A stretch of DNA of 64,000 nucleotides from an uncultured Bacillota bacterium. Lineage in GTDB: Bacteria; Bacillota; Dehalobacteriia; UBA4068; UBA4997. The translations under genes were made by a program, and so were the position numbers. The DNA is taken from assembly GCA_948907985.1 (NCBI GenBank), contig CAQWMM010000004.1, positions 319 to 64,318 of the forward strand, in the 5' to 3' direction. The notes beneath the pieces are model-generated. The model saw nothing but the letters and a program-made list of their open reading frames with translations, did not search any database and was not told the origin of the DNA. This document shows, piece by piece, positions 43,241 through 52,901 of this stretch; the first letter of the stretch is position 1; each line of letters opens with the position of its first letter.

Positions 43241-45148
43241 TCAAGATTTCAAAATAATGAGTAGAACGGCAATGTCCGCCGGCGAAACACCGGTAATCCG
43301 CCCAGCCTGCCCCAGATTATCCGGCCGAACGGCGGCCAGCTTTTGGCGCGCCTCCAGGCTCAGTCCCTCAATTTTGCTATAATCCAAATCCAGCGGCAAT
43401 TTTTTGCTTTCCAGCTTGGCAAAGCGCGCCACCTGCTCCTGCTGCTTTTTAATATAACCCGCATATTTTGCCGCAATATCCAGCTGCTCTGCCACATCGC
43501 GGCTTTGCGGCTCCCGGTGCAAAATTTGGCAGACCTGCCGGTAGTCAACCTCCGGCCTTTTCAGCAATTCCCAGGCGCGGATATTGCAGGAGAGCGCCGG
43601 CTGCAAATTAACGGCGGCGGCATTTTCCTGCGTTATCACCGCCTGCTCCAAAAAATGTTTTTCAGCAGCCACCGCCTGCTCCTTAGTCTGCCAGCGGTGA
43701 TAAGCGGCGTTATCCGTCAAACCAAGTTTATAACCCAACTCCGTCAAACGGCTGTCAGCATTATCATTGCGCAGCAAAAGACGATATTCCGCCAGAGAAG
43801 TAAACATACGGTATGGCTCGGTTACGCCCTTACTTACCAAATCATCAACCAAAACGCCCAGATAGGCGTCCGCCCGGCCCAGAACCAAAGCCGGCCTTTT
43901 AAGCAAACTTAGAGCGGCGTTAGCCCCGGCCAGCAGGCCTTGTCCGGCTGCCTCCTCATAACCGGATGTGCCGTTAATCTGACCGGCAGTGTATAGCCCA
44001 GCCACCGGTTTAGTTTCCAATGTTAGTTTCAGCTGGGTTGGTTCCACAAAATCATATTCAATGGCATAGGCCGGCCTGATTATTTTAACCGCTTCCATTC
44101 CCGGAATAGTGCGCATAAAAGCATACTGCACATCTTCCGGCAAACTAGTAGACATACCCTGCACATAATATTCGTTGGTGTCCAGTCCCTCCGGCTCCAA
44201 AAAAAGCTGGTGATGTGGCCGCCCCGGAAAACGGCGCAGTTTATCTTCAATCGACGGGCAATAACGCGGGCCAATGCCCTTAATCAGACCGCTATACAGC
44301 GGGCAACGGTGCATATTATCCAAAATGGCGCGGTGTGTTGCTTCATTAGTATAAGTCAGCCAGCAGGAAATATTTGGCCTTTTCACACCCACCGGCGGCG
44401 TATAGGAAAAATGCAGGCCGCTGTCATCCCCCGGCTGCTCTTCCATGCGGCCAAAATCCAAGGTATTCTTATCCACACGGGCGGGCGTGCCCGTCTTAAA
44501 GCGTCCAAGCTTAAAACCTAAGGCCCGCAGACTATCCGAAAGATAAACCGCCGGTGGATAACCGGCCGGCCCAGAGGGATAGGCACAGCTGCCCATAATC
44601 ACATTGCCCTTTAAATATGTGCCGCTGGTAATCACCAACCGCCGGCAACGATAAATTGCCCCAGTGCGCAGACGCAGACCGCAAATTTGCGGCTGACCAC
44701 TTTCAGCCATTTCGGTTAAAATTGCCACCGCCTCGCCCTGCTTAATATCCAACTCCGGCTGTGCCTGCAAATAGGCCAGCATCGTGCGCTGATACAACTT
44801 TTTATCAATCTGGGCGCGCAGCGCCTGCACCGCCGCCCCTTTGCTGGTATTCAACAAACGAATTTGAATTTGCGTCAAATCGGTGATTTTGGCCATCGCG
44901 CCTCCCAAGGCGTCAATCTCGCGCACAATCACGCCCTTGGCCGGCCCACCGATTGAGGGATTGCAGGGAGCCATGGCCACACTGTCCATAGAAAGCGTAA
45001 CCAACAAGGTGGATACGCCTAAACGCGCCGCAGCCAGCGCCGCTTCACATCCGGCATGCCCCGCGCCCACCACAATCACGTCATACTCGCCAGCCTCAAA
45101 ACAATCTACATCATTATTATCTAATAATTTGTAATCTTGACAAACCAT
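43241..45148 (-). CDS. mnmG: tRNA uridine-5-carboxymethylaminomethyl modification enzyme MnmG/GidA
   Basis: 635 aa. The FAD-binding N-terminus is [24 protein letters not shown] ~20-aa N-terminal extension is present and the true start is uncertain. Confidence 0.85.
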
Positions 45149-45269
45149 TCTTCTTAAAATCTTGACAAACTATGTGTCATAATTCCTCTCATATCATTTC
45201 ATCTCTATAAAAATAGGACTACTTTCTAAAATATTAGAATAACCCCGCTCCGAATTTTCAAAGCCTTAA

Positions 45270-45289
45270 AATGTTTCACATGAAACATC
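45270..45289. promoter_or_regulatory. second parS-like site (AATGTTTCACATGAAACATC)
   Basis: Same inverted repeat as 42977-42996, in the same flanking context (cttaaaatgtttcacatgaaacat.ttttataat.ttgaca.actat). Confidence 0.5.
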
Positions 45290-45428
45290 TTTTATAATAT
45301 TGACAGACTATATTACGTTATACTTCTATTAAAATTTTATCTCTATAGAATAGGATTGCTTTTCTAAAATACTAAACTAAACCCTCTCCTGATTGCCAAG
45401 GCCTCAAAAAATCCGGAATGCCAAAGCC

Positions 45429-45950
45429 TTAAAAAGATGAGGTAAAGCTGATCGGTTCGACGGAAAGCGAGATTTCGCCAGTACGAATAATTTCGATAAT
45501 GCCGTATTTCTGCATAATCTCGCAGAAAGAGTCAATTTTGCGGCTGTCGTTGGTAACCTCAATAACCATCGACTGGGCGTTGAAGTCGATAATATGCCCA
45601 TGGAAAACCTGCACCACGCCCATAATCTCCTGGCGCATAGCCTCGGAGGATTTAATTTTAACCAACGCCAGCTCACGGCTCATTGAACCGGCTTTAGAAA
45701 GATGCACCACCCGATACACCTGCACCAGCTTTTCAATCTGCGCCATAATCTGTTCCAGCTGCCAGTCAGCCGAAACCTGCACCACCAGAGAAATCCGCGT
45801 TACATTGTCCTTTTCCGTTTTAGAGGCCGCGATAGATTCAATATTATAACCCCGTCTGGAAATCAAACCGGAAACATGGGTTAAAACGCCGGGGCTATCC
45901 TCCACAAATACGGCCAGCTGTTTTCTTTTCAATCCCTTTTCCATCAGCAT
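45429..45950 (-). CDS. ilvN: acetolactate synthase small (regulatory) subunit
   Basis: 173 aa. The ACT domain N-terminus is LAVFVEDSPGVLTHVSGLISRRGYNIESI. Confidence 0.8.
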   Translation of the reverse strand: MLMEKGLKRKQLAVFVEDSPGVLTHVSGLISRRGYNIESIAASKTEKDNVTRISLVVQVSADWQLEQIMAQIEKLVQVYRVVHLSKAGSMSRELALVKIKSSEAMRQEIMGVVQVFHGHIIDFNAQSMVIEVTNDSRKIDSFCEIMQKYGIIEIIRTGEISLSVEPISFTSSF

Positions 45951-47641
45951 TCACCCCCTGCAAAAACCATATCGGAAAGCGATTTGCCCGGCGCTACCAT
46001 CGGCATAACATCCTCCAGCTCGTCCACCATAACCTCCAGCACCACCGGCCCTTTAGCCGCCTGCGCTTTTAAAAGTCCCTCCTGCAGTTGCTCCGGTTTT
46101 TCCACTTTAATTCCCTGGCAGCCCATCACCTCGCCGAGAGCGGCAAAGCTAAGTTTAAACTCATGCTTAGAGGCCGACATCCGCTCGTTATAAAACATTC
46201 TCTGCCATTGGCGCACCATACCCAAACCGCGGTTATTCAGCACCAAAACCTTAACCGGCAGCTGCTCCTCGGCCAGGGTTGCCAATTCCTGGCAGTTCAT
46301 CATAATACTACCGTCGCTGGAAACCAGCCAAACCTCTTTTGGCTGTTCGCTGCCCTCTTCCACCAAAGCAGCGCCCAGCGCCGCTGGCAGGCCATAGCCC
46401 ATAGTGCCCAGGCCGCCGCTGGTTAAAAAGCTGCGCGGCTGCTTAAACGTCATATACTGCGCCGTCCACATCTGGTGTTGGCCAACGTCGGTACAAATAA
46501 CCGCCTGGCCCTTGGTTAAACGGTTTAACTCTTCCAACACCGCCTCCGGCTTAATCACCTTGTCGGACTTTGCATAAGCCAGCGGCCTTTCTTCTTTCCA
46601 TTTCTGGCAGGTTTTCTGCCATTCGGCAATATTACCAGTAGCCGCATTATCCGTCAGCAGTTTAATTGACCATTTCAAATCACCCTGCAAGCGCCAATCC
46701 ACACGCACATTTTTGTTAAACTCCGCTGGATCAATATCCAAATGAACCACCCGCGCCCCCGGCGCAAAAGTTTGCAGGGTGCCGGTAACCCGATCGTCAA
46801 AGCGCACGCCCAGCCCCAGCAGCAAATCGGTATGCTGTACCGCCATATTAGCTGCATAAGTGCCGTGCATACCCAACATACCCAAATGCAGCGGCTTGTC
46901 CGTCGGATAGGCAGAAAGCCCCATCAGACTGGCGCAAACCGGAATACCGGTTTTTTCAATAAAAGTATTCAGCTCTGCCGACGCGCCGCTGCTCACCAGA
47001 CCGCCGCCGATAAACAGCACTGGGCTATGGCTGCGGCCAAGCGCATCACAGATAGACTGCAAGTCAGAAGTATCCCCCTCCGCTTTTGGCTGATAACTCC
47101 ATTTCAGGCTGGCCAAATCCGCCGAATAATCCCACTCGCCCTCATCAACTAAAACATCTTTGGGAATATCCACCACCACCGGGCCGGGCCGGCCAGTGCG
47201 GGCAATATAAAAAGCTTTCTTCAAAATCAGGGGCAGCTGTTCAACGTCCGGCACCAAAAAATTGTGCTTGGTAATCGGCGTAGTTATGCCAATCATATCC
47301 GCTTCCTGAAAAGAATCCTTGCCGATAGCCGGTCTGGTAACCTGGCAGGTAATACAAACCAGTGGTATAGAATCCATATTGGCGGTAGCAATGCCCGTAA
47401 CCAAATTAGTAGCTCCCGGCCCGCTGGTGGATACGCAAACCCCCACCTGGCCGGAACGCCTGGCAAAACCGTCCGCCGCATGCACCGCGCCCTGCTCATG
47501 GCGGGTTAAAATATGGCGCAGGCCACTGTCATAAATCGCGTCATAAAGCGGCAAAGCCTGGCCGCCCGGATAACCGAAAATTGTTTTGATACCCTCTGCT
47601 TTGATGGCCTCCACCACCATTCTTGCACCACTTAACTGCAT
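45944..47641 (-). CDS. ilvB: acetolactate synthase large (catalytic) subunit, biosynthetic type
   Basis: 565 aa. ThDP-dependent enzyme with three domains. The conserved GGLGTMGYGLPAALGA block is present. Confidence 0.85.
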   Translation of the reverse strand: MQLSGARMVVEAIKAEGIKTIFGYPGGQALPLYDAIYDSGLRHILTRHEQGAVHAADGFARRSGQVGVCVSTSGPGATNLVTGIATANMDSIPLVCITCQVTRPAIGKDSFQEADMIGITTPITKHNFLVPDVEQLPLILKKAFYIARTGRPGPVVVDIPKDVLVDEGEWDYSADLASLKWSYQPKAEGDTSDLQSICDALGRSHSPVLFIGGGLVSSGASAELNTFIEKTGIPVCASLMGLSAYPTDKPLHLGMLGMHGTYAANMAVQHTDLLLGLGVRFDDRVTGTLQTFAPGARVVHLDIDPAEFNKNVRVDWRLQGDLKWSIKLLTDNAATGNIAEWQKTCQKWKEERPLAYAKSDKVIKPEAVLEELNRLTKGQAVICTDVGQHQMWTAQYMTFKQPRSFLTSGGLGTMGYGLPAALGAALVEEGSEQPKEVWLVSSDGSIMMNCQELATLAEEQLPVKVLVLNNRGLGMVRQWQRMFYNERMSASKHEFKLSFAALGEVMGCQGIKVEKPEQLQEGLLKAQAAKGPVVLEVMVDELEDVMPMVAPGKSLSDMVFAGGEC

Positions 47642-48984
47642 TCTTCAACCTCCTTAACAGCCAGCCAAATTGCACATTCCAGGCGCATCCGGCTAATTTG
47701 GCAGCCCATTTCATAAGGCTGCATAATATCATGATGAAAAAGTTCAGCGTTAGCATGGCAGCCGCCGCTGCAAAAAAATCTGGCCCAACAGTTCCGGCAG
47801 CTTTTTTTATTATAAACATGCGCCTGGCGAAACTGCTCCTCCAACTCATGGCCACGCTCCGAAATACCATTAGTCAAATCGCCCATCTTAAAGCCTTCGC
47901 GGCCCACAAACTGGTGGCAAGGATAAAAATCACCCTCCGGCGTTACCACCAAATACTCATAGCCCGCGCCACAGCCGGTTAAACGCTTGGGCAGGCAGGG
48001 GCCGTGTTTTAAGTCCAGCTTAAAATGAAAGAACTCAAACGGCTGGCCGTCTTCCCGGCGCTGCTGGAATAAATTAGCCAACTTCCAATATTCTGCCTTT
48101 AACTGCGGCAAATTCTCCTCTAACAGCTTACGTTCGCCCTCCAGTTCCACCGCCGGTTCCATGGAAAGTCTGGGAAAGCCCAAATCCAGCCAATGTTTAA
48201 TATCCTCGCAAAAATCCTTATTAAAAGCTGTATAAGTGCCGCGCACAATCGCGTTGCCGCGGCTGTTCTGCGCCAAAAACTGTTTAATATGCTCCGTTAC
48301 AATCTGATAACTGCCCTTGCCGCCCGCTGTAACCCTCTGGCGATCGTGCACTTCCGGCCGGCCGTCATGGCTTAAAACCACGCTGATGTTTTCCTGTTCC
48401 GCCCAGGCAGAAATTTCCGGCGTCAGTCCTACGCAGTTAGTAGTAAATGTAAAACGGAAAGTTTTGCCATAAGCCTTTTCACGCTCGCGGCCATAAGCCA
48501 CCAGCTTTTTAACCACGTCAATATTTAAAAGCGGTTCACCGCCGAAAAAGTCAACCTCCAAAAAAAGCCGGCTGCCGCTATGCTCCAAAAGATAATCCAG
48601 AGCCGCCGCGCCCACCTCAAAACTCATTCGCGCCCGCTGGCCGCCAAAACTGCCGGTAGAGGCAAAACAATAACGGCAGCGCAGATCGCAGTCGTGGCAA
48701 ACATTCAAACAAAGTGATTTTAAAACCGGCGCCGGCGGTTCGTATTTATCCAAATAGGCGTCTTCGCTGAAGAGAACTCCTTGTTCTTTCAACTCTGCCA
48801 GTTCGTTCAAAATTTCCGCGTCAATTTTCTCCGGCTCTTCGCCGTTTTGCAGATTCTCCAAACAGTCCGCCGTCGCCTGGTCTATCCGCAGCACCGAACC
48901 GCTGTTAATATCCAAAAGCAAAAAGCCGTCTGGCACGGCAAACCAATGTATTTTTTCCAGCTCTTTAGCTGTAATCTGTTGCAT
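47632..48984 (-). CDS. scfB: radical SAM/SPASM-domain peptide maturase (SCIFF/ranthipeptide maturase ScfB-like)
   Basis: 450 aa. The CxxxCxxC motif is CDLRCRYC. The C-terminal SPASM Cys cluster is C..CRNCWARFFCSGGCHA. It is immediately downstream of the SCIFF precursor ORF and has an RBS AAAAGGAG. Confidence 0.75.
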   Translation of the reverse strand: MQQITAKELEKIHWFAVPDGFLLLDINSGSVLRIDQATADCLENLQNGEEPEKIDAEILNELAELKEQGVLFSEDAYLDKYEPPAPVLKSLCLNVCHDCDLRCRYCFASTGSFGGQRARMSFEVGAAALDYLLEHSGSRLFLEVDFFGGEPLLNIDVVKKLVAYGREREKAYGKTFRFTFTTNCVGLTPEISAWAEQENISVVLSHDGRPEVHDRQRVTAGGKGSYQIVTEHIKQFLAQNSRGNAIVRGTYTAFNKDFCEDIKHWLDLGFPRLSMEPAVELEGERKLLEENLPQLKAEYWKLANLFQQRREDGQPFEFFHFKLDLKHGPCLPKRLTGCGAGYEYLVVTPEGDFYPCHQFVGREGFKMGDLTNGISERGHELEEQFRQAHVYNKKSCRNCWARFFCSGGCHANAELFHHDIMQPYEMGCQISRMRLECAIWLAVKEVEECS

Positions 48985-49041
48985 AATATTAACTCCTTTT
49001 CAGCAGGCCCCGTCTGCGCCTGCTCTCACATAAAATACAAA

Positions 49042-49073
49042 GGGACGCGGCCAGGCCAGCGTCCCCTGCATAA
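49042..49073 (-). terminator. hairpin (attenuator/partial terminator) between scfA and scfB
   Basis: The hairpin gggacgc-ggccaggccagc-gcgtccc is followed on the minus strand by a T-rich run. Confidence 0.4.
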
Positions 49074-49080
49074 TGCCCGC

Positions 49081-49218
49081 TTATTTTTCGCAGGCCTGAT
49101 TGCCGACTGTGCAAGAAGTTTTGCAGGCCGACTGGCAGGAGCTTTGGCAGTTGCCGCAGCCGCCGGTTTTTGCTGTTTGCTGCAATTTACCGGAGATTAC
49201 CACCTGAATATGTTTCAT
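49081..49218 (-). CDS. scfA: SCIFF (six Cys in forty-five residues) ranthipeptide precursor
   Basis: Exactly 45 aa: MKHIQVVISGKLQQTAKTGGCGNCQSSCQSACKTSCTVGNQACEK. RBS GGAGGCAGATGAA. It is absent from the ORF track because it is shorter than 60 aa. Confidence 0.8.
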   Translation of the reverse strand: MKHIQVVISGKLQQTAKTGGCGNCQSSCQSACKTSCTVGNQACEK

Positions 49219-49391
49219 TTCATCTGCCTCCTTATTTTTTGCTTATTTGATTGATTATATCACAAATTAACTCTCTCTTCAATAGGCCAGGCCCAAAAAA
49301 ACGCTTGCAGACAAAAAAATCAATCATTTTGCACCCGCCGCCTTTTACAAGCATAAATATAAATATCAAAATTAAAAGGAGGTTCTTCAAA

Positions 49392-49706
49392 ATGCTTTTA
49401 AACTCTATCTATGGCAACACCTGCGGCAGCTGTGGCTGCGGCAACAACGGCAGCTTATTTGCCAACAACAACACCGGCTGCAACAGCTGTGGCTGCAATG
49501 GCGGCTGTAACAACTGCGGCTGTAACAACTGTGGCTGCAACAATGGTTTTTCCGGCTGTGGCAACAATCTGGGCAACGCCGCCTACGGCTTTGTCGGCGA
49601 TTGGGTAAACATCGTAGTTACCCTCACCGTTCTGCAAAGCATTCTTGGCCTGGTTTGCAACTGGAACTGCGGCTGCGGCTGCGGCACAACCACTTACGCC
49701 AACTAA
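49392..49706 (+). CDS. Cys/Asn/Gly-rich small membrane-anchored protein with repeated CGCNN motifs (novel; possible RiPP precursor or metal-binding peptide)
   Basis: 104 aa: MLLNSIYGNTCGSCGCGNNG...CNSCGCNGGCNNCGCNNCGCNNG...WVNIVVTLTVLQSILGLVCNWNCGCGCGTTTYAN. A strong RBS AAAGGAGG lies 8 nt before the ATG. It is transcribed divergently from scfA and followed by a terminator. Confidence 0.6.
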   Translation: MLLNSIYGNTCGSCGCGNNGSLFANNNTGCNSCGCNGGCNNCGCNNCGCNNGFSGCGNNLGNAAYGFVGDWVNIVVTLTVLQSILGLVCNWNCGCGCGTTTYAN

Positions 49707-49752
49707 TTTGCGCCAACAAACTTCAACTTATTCCAGAACAGAACAAAGCGGT

Positions 49753-49795
49753 CGGTATCTTTAAGCCGGCCGCTTTTCTCAAAAAATCTTTTTCT
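49753..49795 (+). terminator. intrinsic terminator after the Cys-rich ORF
   Basis: The hairpin agcggtcgg-tatctttaag-ccggccgct is followed by a T-rich run. Confidence 0.5.
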
Positions 49796-49822
49796 AAAAT
49801 TTTTCAAGGAGGTAATATAAAT

Positions 49823-50761
49823 ATGAATAAACAGGAAGTAATTAACCGTCTGCATGAAACCAGTCAGGCTCTGGAACAGCTGGCTCAGCATTTAAGCGAG
49901 CTGGAACCAGCGCAGGCGGAAACCGAAACCAGCCCGACAGCGGATATAACAGCTGCGGCAGACACAACAGACATAACAGACGCAACAGATACTTCGGATG
50001 CGACAGAAGATGAAGAAGACCCCGCCCCCCCGGCCGAATTTATATCGCACGCGGAAACCAATTCAGAAATAGCCGATTTAATTATCGAAACCACTTTTGA
50101 GCCTATCGACGATGAACCGGCAAAAAAAAATGACGATTCAACCAATTCTTCGGTCAAAAGCGCTAACGCCCCCTTCAATTTTTCAGCAAACGGTTCAAAT
50201 AATAACCCATTTGCTAAAATTATCAACAATCTGTTGAGCAAACCAATTCCCAATGCCAACAATCTGGGCGCTTTTAATCCTCTGCAAATGTTAACCGGCG
50301 GACTTGGCGGTTTGCCCGGAGGGCTATCAGGTTTGCCCGGAGGGCTATCAAATTTGCCCGGCTTAAACGGTCAATCCCTGCCCGCCACTCTGGCCGAACT
50401 GCATGATAACCCTCAACTTTTAGGTATGATTAAAAATGTCAGCAACAATCCACAAATGCTTAATATGCTCTCTGCCCTGACCGGACAGGACAGTCAAACC
50501 CTCCAACAAACCCTGCAAAGCTTACAGCCCAAACCTGACAACATCACTGCACAACCAAACAGTCAACCCGGCGTTCAATCAGACGTTCAGCCAACAATTC
50601 AAGCTGCCGCCAGACAGGCCGCTATACCGCAAACTGAATTTACTCCCTTAAATATTGCCAATTCTGCTGACGCCGCCGGTAGTCTGCCTTCCACTCCCTA
50701 CCTTGATTCTCTGCTGGCCGAATGGCATTGGCAGCCCTACGCCCGCGCCTGGAATTTTTAA
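49823..50761 (+). CDS. hypothetical acidic low-complexity protein with GGLPGGLSGLPGGLSNLPGLNG repeats
   Basis: Start at MNKQEVINRLHE with RBS AAGGAGG. The central region is Asp/Thr-rich (TADITAAADTTDITDATDTSDATEDEED). The listed ORF start at 49601 overlaps the preceding gene and is probably wrong. Confidence 0.55.
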   Translation: MNKQEVINRLHETSQALEQLAQHLSELEPAQAETETSPTADITAAADTTDITDATDTSDATEDEEDPAPPAEFISHAETNSEIADLIIETTFEPIDDEPAKKNDDSTNSSVKSANAPFNFSANGSNNNPFAKIINNLLSKPIPNANNLGAFNPLQMLTGGLGGLPGGLSGLPGGLSNLPGLNGQSLPATLAELHDNPQLLGMIKNVSNNPQMLNMLSALTGQDSQTLQQTLQSLQPKPDNITAQPNSQPGVQSDVQPTIQAAARQAAIPQTEFTPLNIANSADAAGSLPSTPYLDSLLAEWHWQPYARAWNF

Positions 50762-50847
50762 GATATTGACAAACTATGTTAGGTAATGCTGTTATGTAGG
50801 GATATTCTATATAGAATAAAAAGTGCCTCTAAAAACATACTTTAAAC

Positions 50848-50906
50848 CTGGCTCCCCCCTCTGGGGGAGCTGGCTATTTGCGTTAGCAAATAGACTGAGG
50901 GGGCGC
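50848..50906. repeat. MITE-like element copy D (short deletion derivative)
   Basis: Contains gctcccccctctgggggagc and ctatttgcgttagcaaatag, and ends with gacTGAGGGGGCg, which resembles the right TIR. Confidence 0.4.
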
Positions 50907-50947
50907 TTACTTCCCCTTTTAGGGAAATTAAAATATTTTTTTGATTT

Positions 50948-51757
50948 TTATTTATTTTCAGCAGCTAACTTAAAATAGGCTTTAAATTTATCCTCCGGCA
51001 TACCAAAAACCGGAATTTCCGAGCAGATCTGCCTGTTTTCGTCGTCCGGTTGATTAAGCCCGTCCTGCCGCAAACGATAACGCAGATTTTGCGCCGTTCC
51101 CAGATTACCGTCATAAAGTCTAAGCCCGGGAAACATCTGCTTTAACAAACCACGCAGAAAAATATAATGCGTACAACCCAAAACCAAAGCGTCGTCTTTA
51201 TCCGATGATAAAACCGCCTCCAGCTTATTCCGCAAATAATCGCAAATAACGTCAGTTTTTTTATTAATCAACTCATTTTCAATCAGCTGTACTAATCCCG
51301 GGCAAGGCAAAATTTTAATTTCCGCCAAAGCAGAATCTGCCGCTAAAAGCCGGCGCAGTTTTTCTCCCCTGGTGGTTACATCCGTAGCCAGAGCGACAAT
51401 TTTCTTTTCGCCGTTTTTCACAGCCAAATGTACCGCCGGTTCCATACCCAAAATCGGCAAATCCGGATTTTCCGCCCGCAAAGCCGCCGCCGCGGCGCTG
51501 GTAGCAGTATTACAGGCAATCACCATTGCTTTAACGCCGCGTTTTTTAAAAAAAGCCGTAACAGCCCGCGCCCGCTGCAAAATAAATTCCTGGCTACGTT
51601 CCCCATAAGGAGCGTTTGCCAAATCGCCAAAATAAACAAAACGCTCGGCCGGCAGCAAATTCTGCGCCAAGGGCAAAAAACTAATACCCCCCACCCCAGA
51701 ATCATAAACGCCAATCTCCGCCTGTTTAAGGCCCGTCTTATCTAAACAATTCTCCAT
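50948..51757 (-). CDS. murI: glutamate racemase
   Basis: 269 aa. GVYDSGVGGISFL...CNTATSAA are the conserved racemase motifs. Confidence 0.85.
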   Translation of the reverse strand: MENCLDKTGLKQAEIGVYDSGVGGISFLPLAQNLLPAERFVYFGDLANAPYGERSQEFILQRARAVTAFFKKRGVKAMVIACNTATSAAAAALRAENPDLPILGMEPAVHLAVKNGEKKIVALATDVTTRGEKLRRLLAADSALAEIKILPCPGLVQLIENELINKKTDVICDYLRNKLEAVLSSDKDDALVLGCTHYIFLRGLLKQMFPGLRLYDGNLGTAQNLRYRLRQDGLNQPDDENRQICSEIPVFGMPEDKFKAYFKLAAENK

Positions 51758-52901
51758 TTTTTACCTCAATCAGCTGATAATCTTCTTCAGACAGCTTTTT
51801 CAGCTCACCGGCTATTTCCGTAGCCGTAATAAAAATTTGCGCCTTGTCCAACATCAGCCGCAGCAAAGCCTGACGGCGGTTTTTATCCAATTCAGAAAAA
51901 ACGTCGTCCAACAGCAGCAGCGGATAATAGCCGGAAAGCTGATAAACCAGCTCCAACTCCGATAATTTCAAGGCCAAAGCCGCCGTACGCTGCTGCCCCT
52001 GCGAGGCATAATAACGCCCCTCGTTATCATTAATATAAATGCGAAAATCATCACGGTGCGGCCCCAACAGTGTTGTCCGCCGCCTTTGATCCTCCGCCCT
52101 TCCGTCGGCGTAAGCCTGGCGCAGGCTGGCGCTTAATTCCGCCGGCGATAAAGCGGCAATTTTTTCTTCCGGCCAAACCGATAAATATTGCAGGCGTAAA
52201 CATTCCTGTTCATTTGTCAGTTCCGCTTGAATTTTCCGCCCGGTCTGATTTAACAAAGTCAAAAGCTGCAAACGCCGCTGCATAATCACCGCGCCGTTTT
52301 CGGCCAGCTGCTCCTCCCAAACCGCCAGTTGTTCGTCTGCCTGCTGTTTATTTTTAGGCGGCCTAAAATCCAGCTGTTTCAGCAAATTATTGCGCTGCTG
52401 TAAAGCCCGGCGATAATTATTCAAATAAAGATAATAGCCCTTGTATAACTGAACCATTTCCCGGTCCAGAAACTTCCGGCGCACCTCCGGAGCTGATTTA
52501 ACCAGCTGCAAATCTTCCGGCGTAAAAACCACCGTATGCAGCAGGCCGGCAATTTCACTAATCCGGCGGCAGGGCTTTTCATCACGTTTCCACAGCCGGC
52601 GATTATGCGTCCCTTTCGTTTTAACCGCTTCCGAACCGACGGAAAGCAAATGCACGCCGTCTTTATTACTATATTCCGCCCGCAGATAAAAAAACTCCTC
52701 GCCCTGGCGGCGCAGCTTATCGTCCCCCTGCTCCCGAAAGGACGAACCCAGGCTTAAATAAGCGATTGCCTCCAGCAAATTAGTTTTCCCTTGAGCGTTA
52801 TCGCCCAAAATTAAATTCAGGCGCGAATTAAAACTGACTTCCGTATCCCGATAATTGCGAAAATTGCGCAGCACCAGCGTATTTAAATGCAAACCAGCCA
52901 T
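51738..52901 (-). CDS. recF: DNA replication and repair protein RecF
   Basis: 387 aa. The Walker A motif is GDNAQGKTNLLEAI. The signature motif is near the C-terminus. Confidence 0.9.
   Translation of the reverse strand: MAGLHLNTLVLRNFRNYRDTEVSFNSRLNLILGDNAQGKTNLLEAIAYLSLGSSFREQGDDKLRRQGEEFFYLRAEYSNKDGVHLLSVGSEAVKTKGTHNRRLWKRDEKPCRRISEIAGLLHTVVFTPEDLQLVKSAPEVRRKFLDREMVQLYKGYYLYLNNYRRALQQRNNLLKQLDFRPPKNKQQADEQLAVWEEQLAENGAVIMQRRLQLLTLLNQTGRKIQAELTNEQECLRLQYLSVWPEEKIAALSPAELSASLRQAYADGRAEDQRRRTTLLGPHRDDFRIYINDNEGRYYASQGQQRTAALALKLSELELVYQLSGYYPLLLLDDVFSELDKNRRQALLRLMLDKAQIFITATEIAGELKKLSEEDYQLIEVKNGELFR

Follow-up and report, generated by a model that had tools for sequence, protein, structure and literature searches.

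The 64,000-nucleotide stretch of DNA analysed here (the window; positions 319 to 64,318 of contig CAQWMM010000004.1, from an uncultured Bacillota bacterium) carries on its minus strand two adjacent genes, scfA and scfB, which encode a six-cysteine ranthipeptide precursor of the SCIFF family and a radical S-adenosylmethionine (SAM)/SPASM enzyme predicted to be its maturase. The scfB gene starts 96 nt 3' of scfA (intergenic region 48985-49080) and is preceded by the ribosome-binding site AAAGGAG; a terminator-like hairpin lies between the two genes, and those for the two subunits of acetolactate synthase, ilvB and ilvN, follow on the same strand. All positions are those of the window, and the features are collected in Table 1.

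Table 1. Features of the scfA-scfB locus and its surroundings, with the basis of each assignment (HMM, hidden Markov model).
Feature	Position	Strand	Basis
scfA, 45-aa SCIFF ranthipeptide precursor	49081..49218	-	HMM matches and conservation in relatives
scfB, 450-aa radical SAM/SPASM SCIFF maturase, predicted thioether-forming	47632..48984	-	TIGR03974, Pfam domains, CteB alignment, cysteine mapping
GC-rich stem-loop and U-tract right after the scfA stop codon, terminator-like or attenuator-like	49032..49076	-	Folding and comparative analysis
Promoter-like site 5' of scfA (TTGAAG, 17-nt spacer, TGnTATAAT)	49254..49282	-	Consensus match
ilvB, acetolactate synthase large subunit	45944..47641	-	TIGR00118 at 739 bits
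ilvN, acetolactate synthase small subunit, last gene of the apparent operon	45429..45950	-	Pfam ACT/ALS_ss_C matches on orthologues
Cys/Gly/Asn-rich small protein, 104 aa, divergent from scfA	49392-49706	+	Ribosome-binding site AAAGGAGG

The reading frame of scfA runs from ATG AAA CAT to GAA AAA TAA and encodes the peptide MKHIQVVISGKLQQTAKTGGCGNCQSSCQSACKTSCTVGNQACEK. An earlier note on this DNA had described here a minus-strand frame of exactly 45 amino acids with six cysteines in its C-terminal half and had read it as a SCIFF; the frame is present as described and the assignment was borne out by both family models. The cysteines occupy positions 21, 24, 28, 32, 36 and 43 (CX2CX3CX3CX3CX6C), within a Cys-rich core comprising residues 19-45 that follows a leader of approximately residues 1-18. 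The peptide scored 73.2 bits against TIGR03973 ("six-cysteine ranthipeptide SCIFF"; cutoff 50, E = 1.2e-20) and 76.6 bits against PF13165 (cutoff 27); since the E-values of these matches range from 1e-20 to 1e-21 and both scores exceed the curated cutoffs, the match is far beyond chance and, judged by these models, the peptide belongs to the SCIFF precursor family. A ribosome-binding site, AAGGAGG, was found 8 nt 5' of the ATG. The promoter-like site further upstream agrees with the consensus at 10 of 12 positions and has a TG preceding the -10 hexamer, a match suggesting that it may serve as the scfA promoter.

The enzyme encoded by scfB contains the Pfam domains Radical_SAM, Fer4_12 and SPASM, the last of these regions being matched also by TIGR04085 (69.5 bits) and PF13186 (27.8 bits). 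Its radical SAM motif, CDLRCRYC, provides C99, C103 and C106 in the CX3CX2C arrangement, and the SPASM region contains seven cysteines, of which C338, C356 and C409 would belong to auxiliary cluster 1 and C396, C399, C405 and C428 to auxiliary cluster 2. The protein scored 523.8 bits against the equivalog model TIGR03974 ("thioether cross-link-forming SCIFF peptide maturase"), for which the cutoff is 425. The proposal that a 450-aa radical SAM enzyme of the scfB type, with CxxxCxxC and SPASM clusters, is encoded next to the precursor was thus confirmed, and on family membership ScfB is a SCIFF maturase of the ScfB/CteB type.

Comparison with experimentally studied proteins gave the same picture. 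Among all solved structures the best relative of ScfB was the characterised SCIFF maturase CteB of Clostridium thermocellum (5WGG/5WHY), with E = 6.9e-135, the next match having E = 5.6e-11; residues 10-445 of ScfB aligned to CteB chain residues 5-452 with 48% identity over 434 aligned positions. The ligands reported for CteB are C104/C108/C111 for the radical SAM cluster, C344/C362/C413 for auxiliary cluster 1 and C400/C403/C409/C432 for auxiliary cluster 2 (PMC10177961). When these were mapped with an offset of +3 in the PDB chain index, all ten Fe-S-ligating cysteines of CteB aligned to cysteines in ScfB, namely the ten named above, cluster by cluster. Residues 10-90 of ScfB aligned to the N-terminal domain of CteB, where the RRE region of that enzyme lies, and to the N-terminus of TIGR03974. 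The window system resembles CteA/CteB, the thermocellin system of Clostridium (Hungateiclostridium) thermocellum, in its predicted three-domain enzyme layout (putative RRE, radical SAM, SPASM) and in its precursor, which is of the same length class as CteA and has Cys21, Cys32, Thr34 and Thr37 in register with CteA and Tte1186a, the peptides for which a Cys32-Thr cross-link has been located (PMC8326336, PMC6231123). It differs from CteA in its leader sequence (KHIQVVISGKLQQTAKT) and from the CteA/CteB locus in that the cassette is joined to ilvBN. Position 23 of the window peptide is Asn, whereas the consensus of the aligned SCIFFs has Glu. Tte1186a/Tte1186 of Caldanaerobacter subterraneus belongs to the same SCIFF/ScfB family and has the same set of cluster cysteines, a likeness that we infer from the family models together with the alignment to CteB in the literature; it comes from a different organism, and binding of the donor cysteine to auxiliary cluster 1 was demonstrated in that system (PMC10177961).

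The pairing of the two genes is conserved. A back-translated scan with one genome per species detected maturase relatives at 17 loci, seven of them with 75-88% identity and the rest with 38-54%. The seven closest come from uncultured Peptococcaceae or Bacillota metagenome-assembled genomes, including Candidatus Avidehalobacter gallistercoris. All 16 of the related loci in which DNA upstream of the maturase gene is preserved have a SCIFF frame directly 5' of that gene and on the same strand. Among 13 aligned SCIFFs, C21, C24, S27-S35, T37, N40, Q41 and C43 are invariant, giving the core SCQSACKTS.T..NQ.C, while the leader varies; the donor Cys32 and the acceptors Thr34/Thr37 (roles taken from PMC8326336) fall within this invariant core. 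The small frame is therefore conserved in related genomes, a point on which the earlier note had made its reading depend.

The system is also already known and catalogued, and the cassette is canonical and ordinary. Identical copies of both proteins, of 45 aa and 450 aa, are present in NCBI and in Logan (longest contig, 65,036 bp), gut sequencing runs such as ERR3199632 and ERR3199637 carry this contig, and the cluster mates of the two proteins are named "six-cysteine ranthipeptide SCIFF" and "six-Cys-in-45 modification radical SAM protein". The description of the precursor as unlisted was correct only with respect to the first-stage track of open reading frames, from which it is missing for the trivial reason that it is shorter than 60 aa; public gene calls on contigs with an identical maturase do list the 45-aa gene, with its PF13165:SCIFF match.

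Two other identities of the enzyme had to be weighed against these data. If it were an anaerobic sulfatase-maturating enzyme lying beside a small frame that arose by chance, the radical SAM/SPASM architecture, common to both families, would be equally expected, and the protein does show a weak match to the corresponding model, TIGR03942. That match, however, amounts to 88.4 bits against a cutoff of 349.45, far under the score obtained with TIGR03974, so that the grouping with sulfatase maturases which the earlier note had proposed to check by HMM was already refuted by the scores; moreover, no sulfatase gene was seen among the adjacent open reading frames, and the small frame is a significant SCIFF match conserved in relatives. 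We consider this identity to be practically excluded. An enzyme of a sister family acting on another substrate, that is, a ranthipeptide or orphan maturase of the NF040492 ("ScfB-related orphan", not_ScfB), PapB/freyrasin or QhpD type, would account for the substantial scores obtained with these models, which reflect shared ancestry. The protein nevertheless stayed under all three curated cutoffs, with 457.7 bits against the NF040492 exception model (cutoff 855), 251 bits against PapB (cutoff 340) and 215 bits against QhpD (cutoff 453), and it has a bona fide SCIFF 96 nt upstream, whereas no CX3D-repeat peptide or qhp genes were found among the window's open reading frames nearby. The substrates of PapA/PapB (freyrasin) and of NxxcA/NxxcB, systems whose maturases are homologous radical SAM/SPASM enzymes forming non-alpha thioethers, are CX3D repeats or NxxC motifs rather than the SCIFF core, and the cross-links formed there are at C-beta instead of C-gamma. 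A sister-family identity is thus very unlikely. Membership of the CcpM family was rejected along with those of the sulfatase maturase, PapB, QhpD and not_ScfB families, all of them scoring under the curated cutoffs.

We hold with high confidence that the locus is a canonical scfA-scfB cassette of an uncultured, Peptococcaceae-like gut Bacillota genome, and that it would work as outlined in what follows. The family membership of both products, the conserved catalytic cysteines and substrate residues, the pairing of the genes and the conservation of the hairpin were directly observed, and all the mechanism residues of CteB/Tte1186 are present, in register, in the window system. By analogy with the biochemistry of these two enzymes, the following chemistry may be proposed for ScfB.

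Transcription of scfA from its own promoter would yield the 45-aa precursor, and its N-terminal leader would presumably be bound by ScfB through a putative RRE domain. The [4Fe-4S] cluster held by C99/C103/C106 would then cleave SAM to a 5'-deoxyadenosyl radical, which would take a hydrogen from a Thr side chain of the core, while the thiolate of the donor Cys32 would be bound to the open iron of auxiliary cluster 1 (C338/C356/C409). The expected product is a ranthipeptide, in which an S-to-C-gamma thioether links Cys32 to Thr37 or Thr34 of the same peptide. In CteB the N-terminal domain is an RRE, which the leader of SCIFF joins as an extra beta-strand (PMC6231123), and in Tte1186 selenium extended X-ray absorption fine structure showed that the donor Cys thiolate binds the open iron of that auxiliary cluster (PMC10177961).

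Expression of the two genes would be set by the hairpin that separates them. Its stem consists of GGGGACGC...GCGUCCC, followed by UUUGUAUUUUA, and the 101-nt scfA-scfB spacer folds with a minimum free energy of -39.8 kcal/mol (z = -2.5 against shuffles). All the close relatives and several distant ones have a GC-rich stem-loop after the stop codon of the SCIFF gene, in most cases with a T-rich run behind it. The sequences of the stem vary by lineage (GGGGACGC/GCGTCCC, GGGGGCGC/GCGTCCCC, GGGGGCGC/GCGCCTCC, GGGGGTGC/GCGCCCTC and GGGGGCAC/GTGCTCCC), and an RNAalifold analysis of eight sequences gave 11 consensus pairs, 5 of which keep their pairing through changes on both sides. As pairing is kept while the stem sequences differ, it is the structure that is conserved and not the sequence, a pattern expected of an intrinsic terminator or attenuator that would set a high ratio of precursor to enzyme transcripts. 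Most transcripts would stop at the hairpin, so that precursor mRNA would greatly exceed enzyme mRNA, and read-through would supply scfB and, in this clade, ilvBN. The attenuator-like hairpin that the earlier note placed between the genes is therefore real, as its stability and compensatory changes indicate, while attenuation itself is its presumed function. An Rfam scan of 45000-52000 at E <= 1 returned two sub-threshold noise matches only and none for the hairpin; neither the hairpin nor the leader is thus a member of a known family of riboswitches, T-boxes or leaders. A second and smaller stem-loop (GCAGGCGCAGACGGGGCCUGC) was observed at 49002-49024 on the minus strand, just 5' of the scfB ribosome-binding site; the nearest relatives (loci L001 and L002) lack it, so that it is probably incidental.

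The strong GC stem and the T-tract that follows it would also suit a complete terminator or a 3' structure that merely stabilises the mRNA, with scfB-ilvBN expressed from a separate promoter and no attenuation at all, and ilvBN, a housekeeping operon, might need such independent expression. On the other hand, promoter prediction gave no sigma-70-like site in the interval from the hairpin to scfB, only ~47 nt separate the T-tract from the scfB start, and the order scfA-hairpin-scfB is kept across the relatives. A separate promoter is therefore the less probable arrangement, though a serious one, and we favour partial termination at the hairpin with read-through into scfB.

Several points weigh against the explanation as a whole. 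Partial read-through is itself inferred, and the hairpin between scfA and scfB went uncalled in a simple terminator scan, probably because its inner stem is bulged. The published position of the cross-link differs from one study to another, being from Cys32 to Thr37 in vitro and to Thr34 on co-expression (PMC8326336). No protease or exporter gene adjoins scfA-scfB among the adjacent open reading frames of the window, which leaves leader removal and export unexplained. Finally, in the accounts cited below, what is known of the physiological role of SCIFFs comes only from transcriptome changes in knock-out strains of two species of Clostridium.

With regard to that role, SCIFFs are described as near-universal in Clostridia, which argues against their being antibiotics (Haft and Basu 2011, as summarised in PMC8326336). 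Knock-out strains of C. beijerinckii and of C. ljungdahlii were altered in sporulation and in agr expression, effects that were read as pointing to a quorum-sensing role (Chen et al. 2020, as related in PMC8326336 and PMC8102284). By analogy with these clostridia, the window peptide may have a signalling or regulatory role. The statement in the earlier note that SCIFF products are functionally uncharacterised is accordingly dated in part, as a quorum-sensing or regulatory role has been reported in solventogenic clostridia and both the Cys32-Thr C-gamma thioether and the structure of the enzyme are known. The final structure, export, receptor and role of SCIFFs are incompletely understood, matters on which the window locus gives no special handle.

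Downstream of the cassette, the end of scfB and the start of ilvB overlap by 10 nt at 47632-47641 on the minus strand (ATGCAGTTAA), with the ilvB ATG lying within the last scfB codons, and the ribosome-binding site of ilvB (AAGGAGG) is located inside scfB. This arrangement implies an scfA-scfB-ilvB-ilvN operon with translational coupling, in which ilvB is apparently co-transcribed with scfB. In all the relatives whose ScfB is at least 75% identical, ilvB directly follows scfB, overlapping it or nearly abutting it, whereas it was not found 3' of scfB in relatives with ScfB at 54% identity or less. Judged by this distribution, the scfB-ilvBN linkage is a clade-specific operon fusion. The locus is origin-proximal, with mnmG (gidA), ilvN, ilvB, scfB and scfA on the minus strand; beyond scfA come two unannotated plus-strand genes and then murI, recF and an S4-domain gene. 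Further on there are probably dnaN and dnaA, according to the sizes of the open reading frames and the synteny in related loci rather than a check of the window.

The first of the two unannotated plus-strand genes shares with scfA a 173-bp divergent control region. Its 104-aa product has a variable Cys/Gly/Asn-rich stretch with many CxxC and NxxC motifs, and its family is characterised by an invariant hydrophobic C-terminal motif, WVNIVVTLTxLQSILGLVCNWNCG. The protein matched no Pfam or NCBIfam model; its homologues form 47 unnamed clusters at 90% identity, and a profile of the family found only 6 matches (50%-identity representatives) among 1.84 billion cluster representatives, none of them to a named family. 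Its AlphaFold model (mean pLDDT 45.5) shows a single long helix, of low confidence, at residues 60-91, and the quality of the model does not allow a fold search. Of six members whose surroundings were looked up, four lie beside scfA-scfB-ilvBN, all in one origin-proximal synteny block, and two of another subtype (L020 and L024) sit elsewhere with no SCIFF nearby. As the four SCIFF-adjacent members share one block and the other subtype is found elsewhere, shared synteny explains the adjacency to scfA, and a functional tie of this protein to SCIFF or ScfB was not supported. It seems improbable that SCIFF production is mechanistically tied to branched-chain amino-acid biosynthesis as a nutrient-state signal and that the Cys-rich neighbour is a second substrate or partner of ScfB.

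Other genes were seen around the Cys-rich gene. In the window it is followed by a gene for a low-complexity 312-aa protein (49823-50761, plus strand) that has a coiled-coil-like N-terminus (MNKQEVINRLHETSQALEQLAQHL), an acidic Thr/Asp-rich middle part and a conserved C-terminus (PYLDSLLAEWHWQPYARAWNF), and for which no family match was obtained. All the SCIFF-adjacent loci examined encode a low-complexity protein of this kind, of 230-312 aa, next after the Cys-rich gene, and L020 and L024 lack it. In three related loci an extra Cys-rich small frame, starting MACCNN..., lies between the Cys/Gly/Asn-rich gene and scfA (L004, 4289-4549; L005, 4258-4575; L007, 1-482; all on the minus strand), and no equivalent of it was seen in the window.

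In summary, the locus adds to the known SCIFF/ScfB pairs one from an uncultured lineage of gut Bacillota, and has little import beyond its correct annotation. It illustrates that a RiPP (ribosomally synthesised and post-translationally modified peptide) precursor of less than 60 aa can be recognised from raw sequence. The only new angle that it offers for the biology of this family is the clade-specific fusion of the SCIFF cassette to ilvBN.

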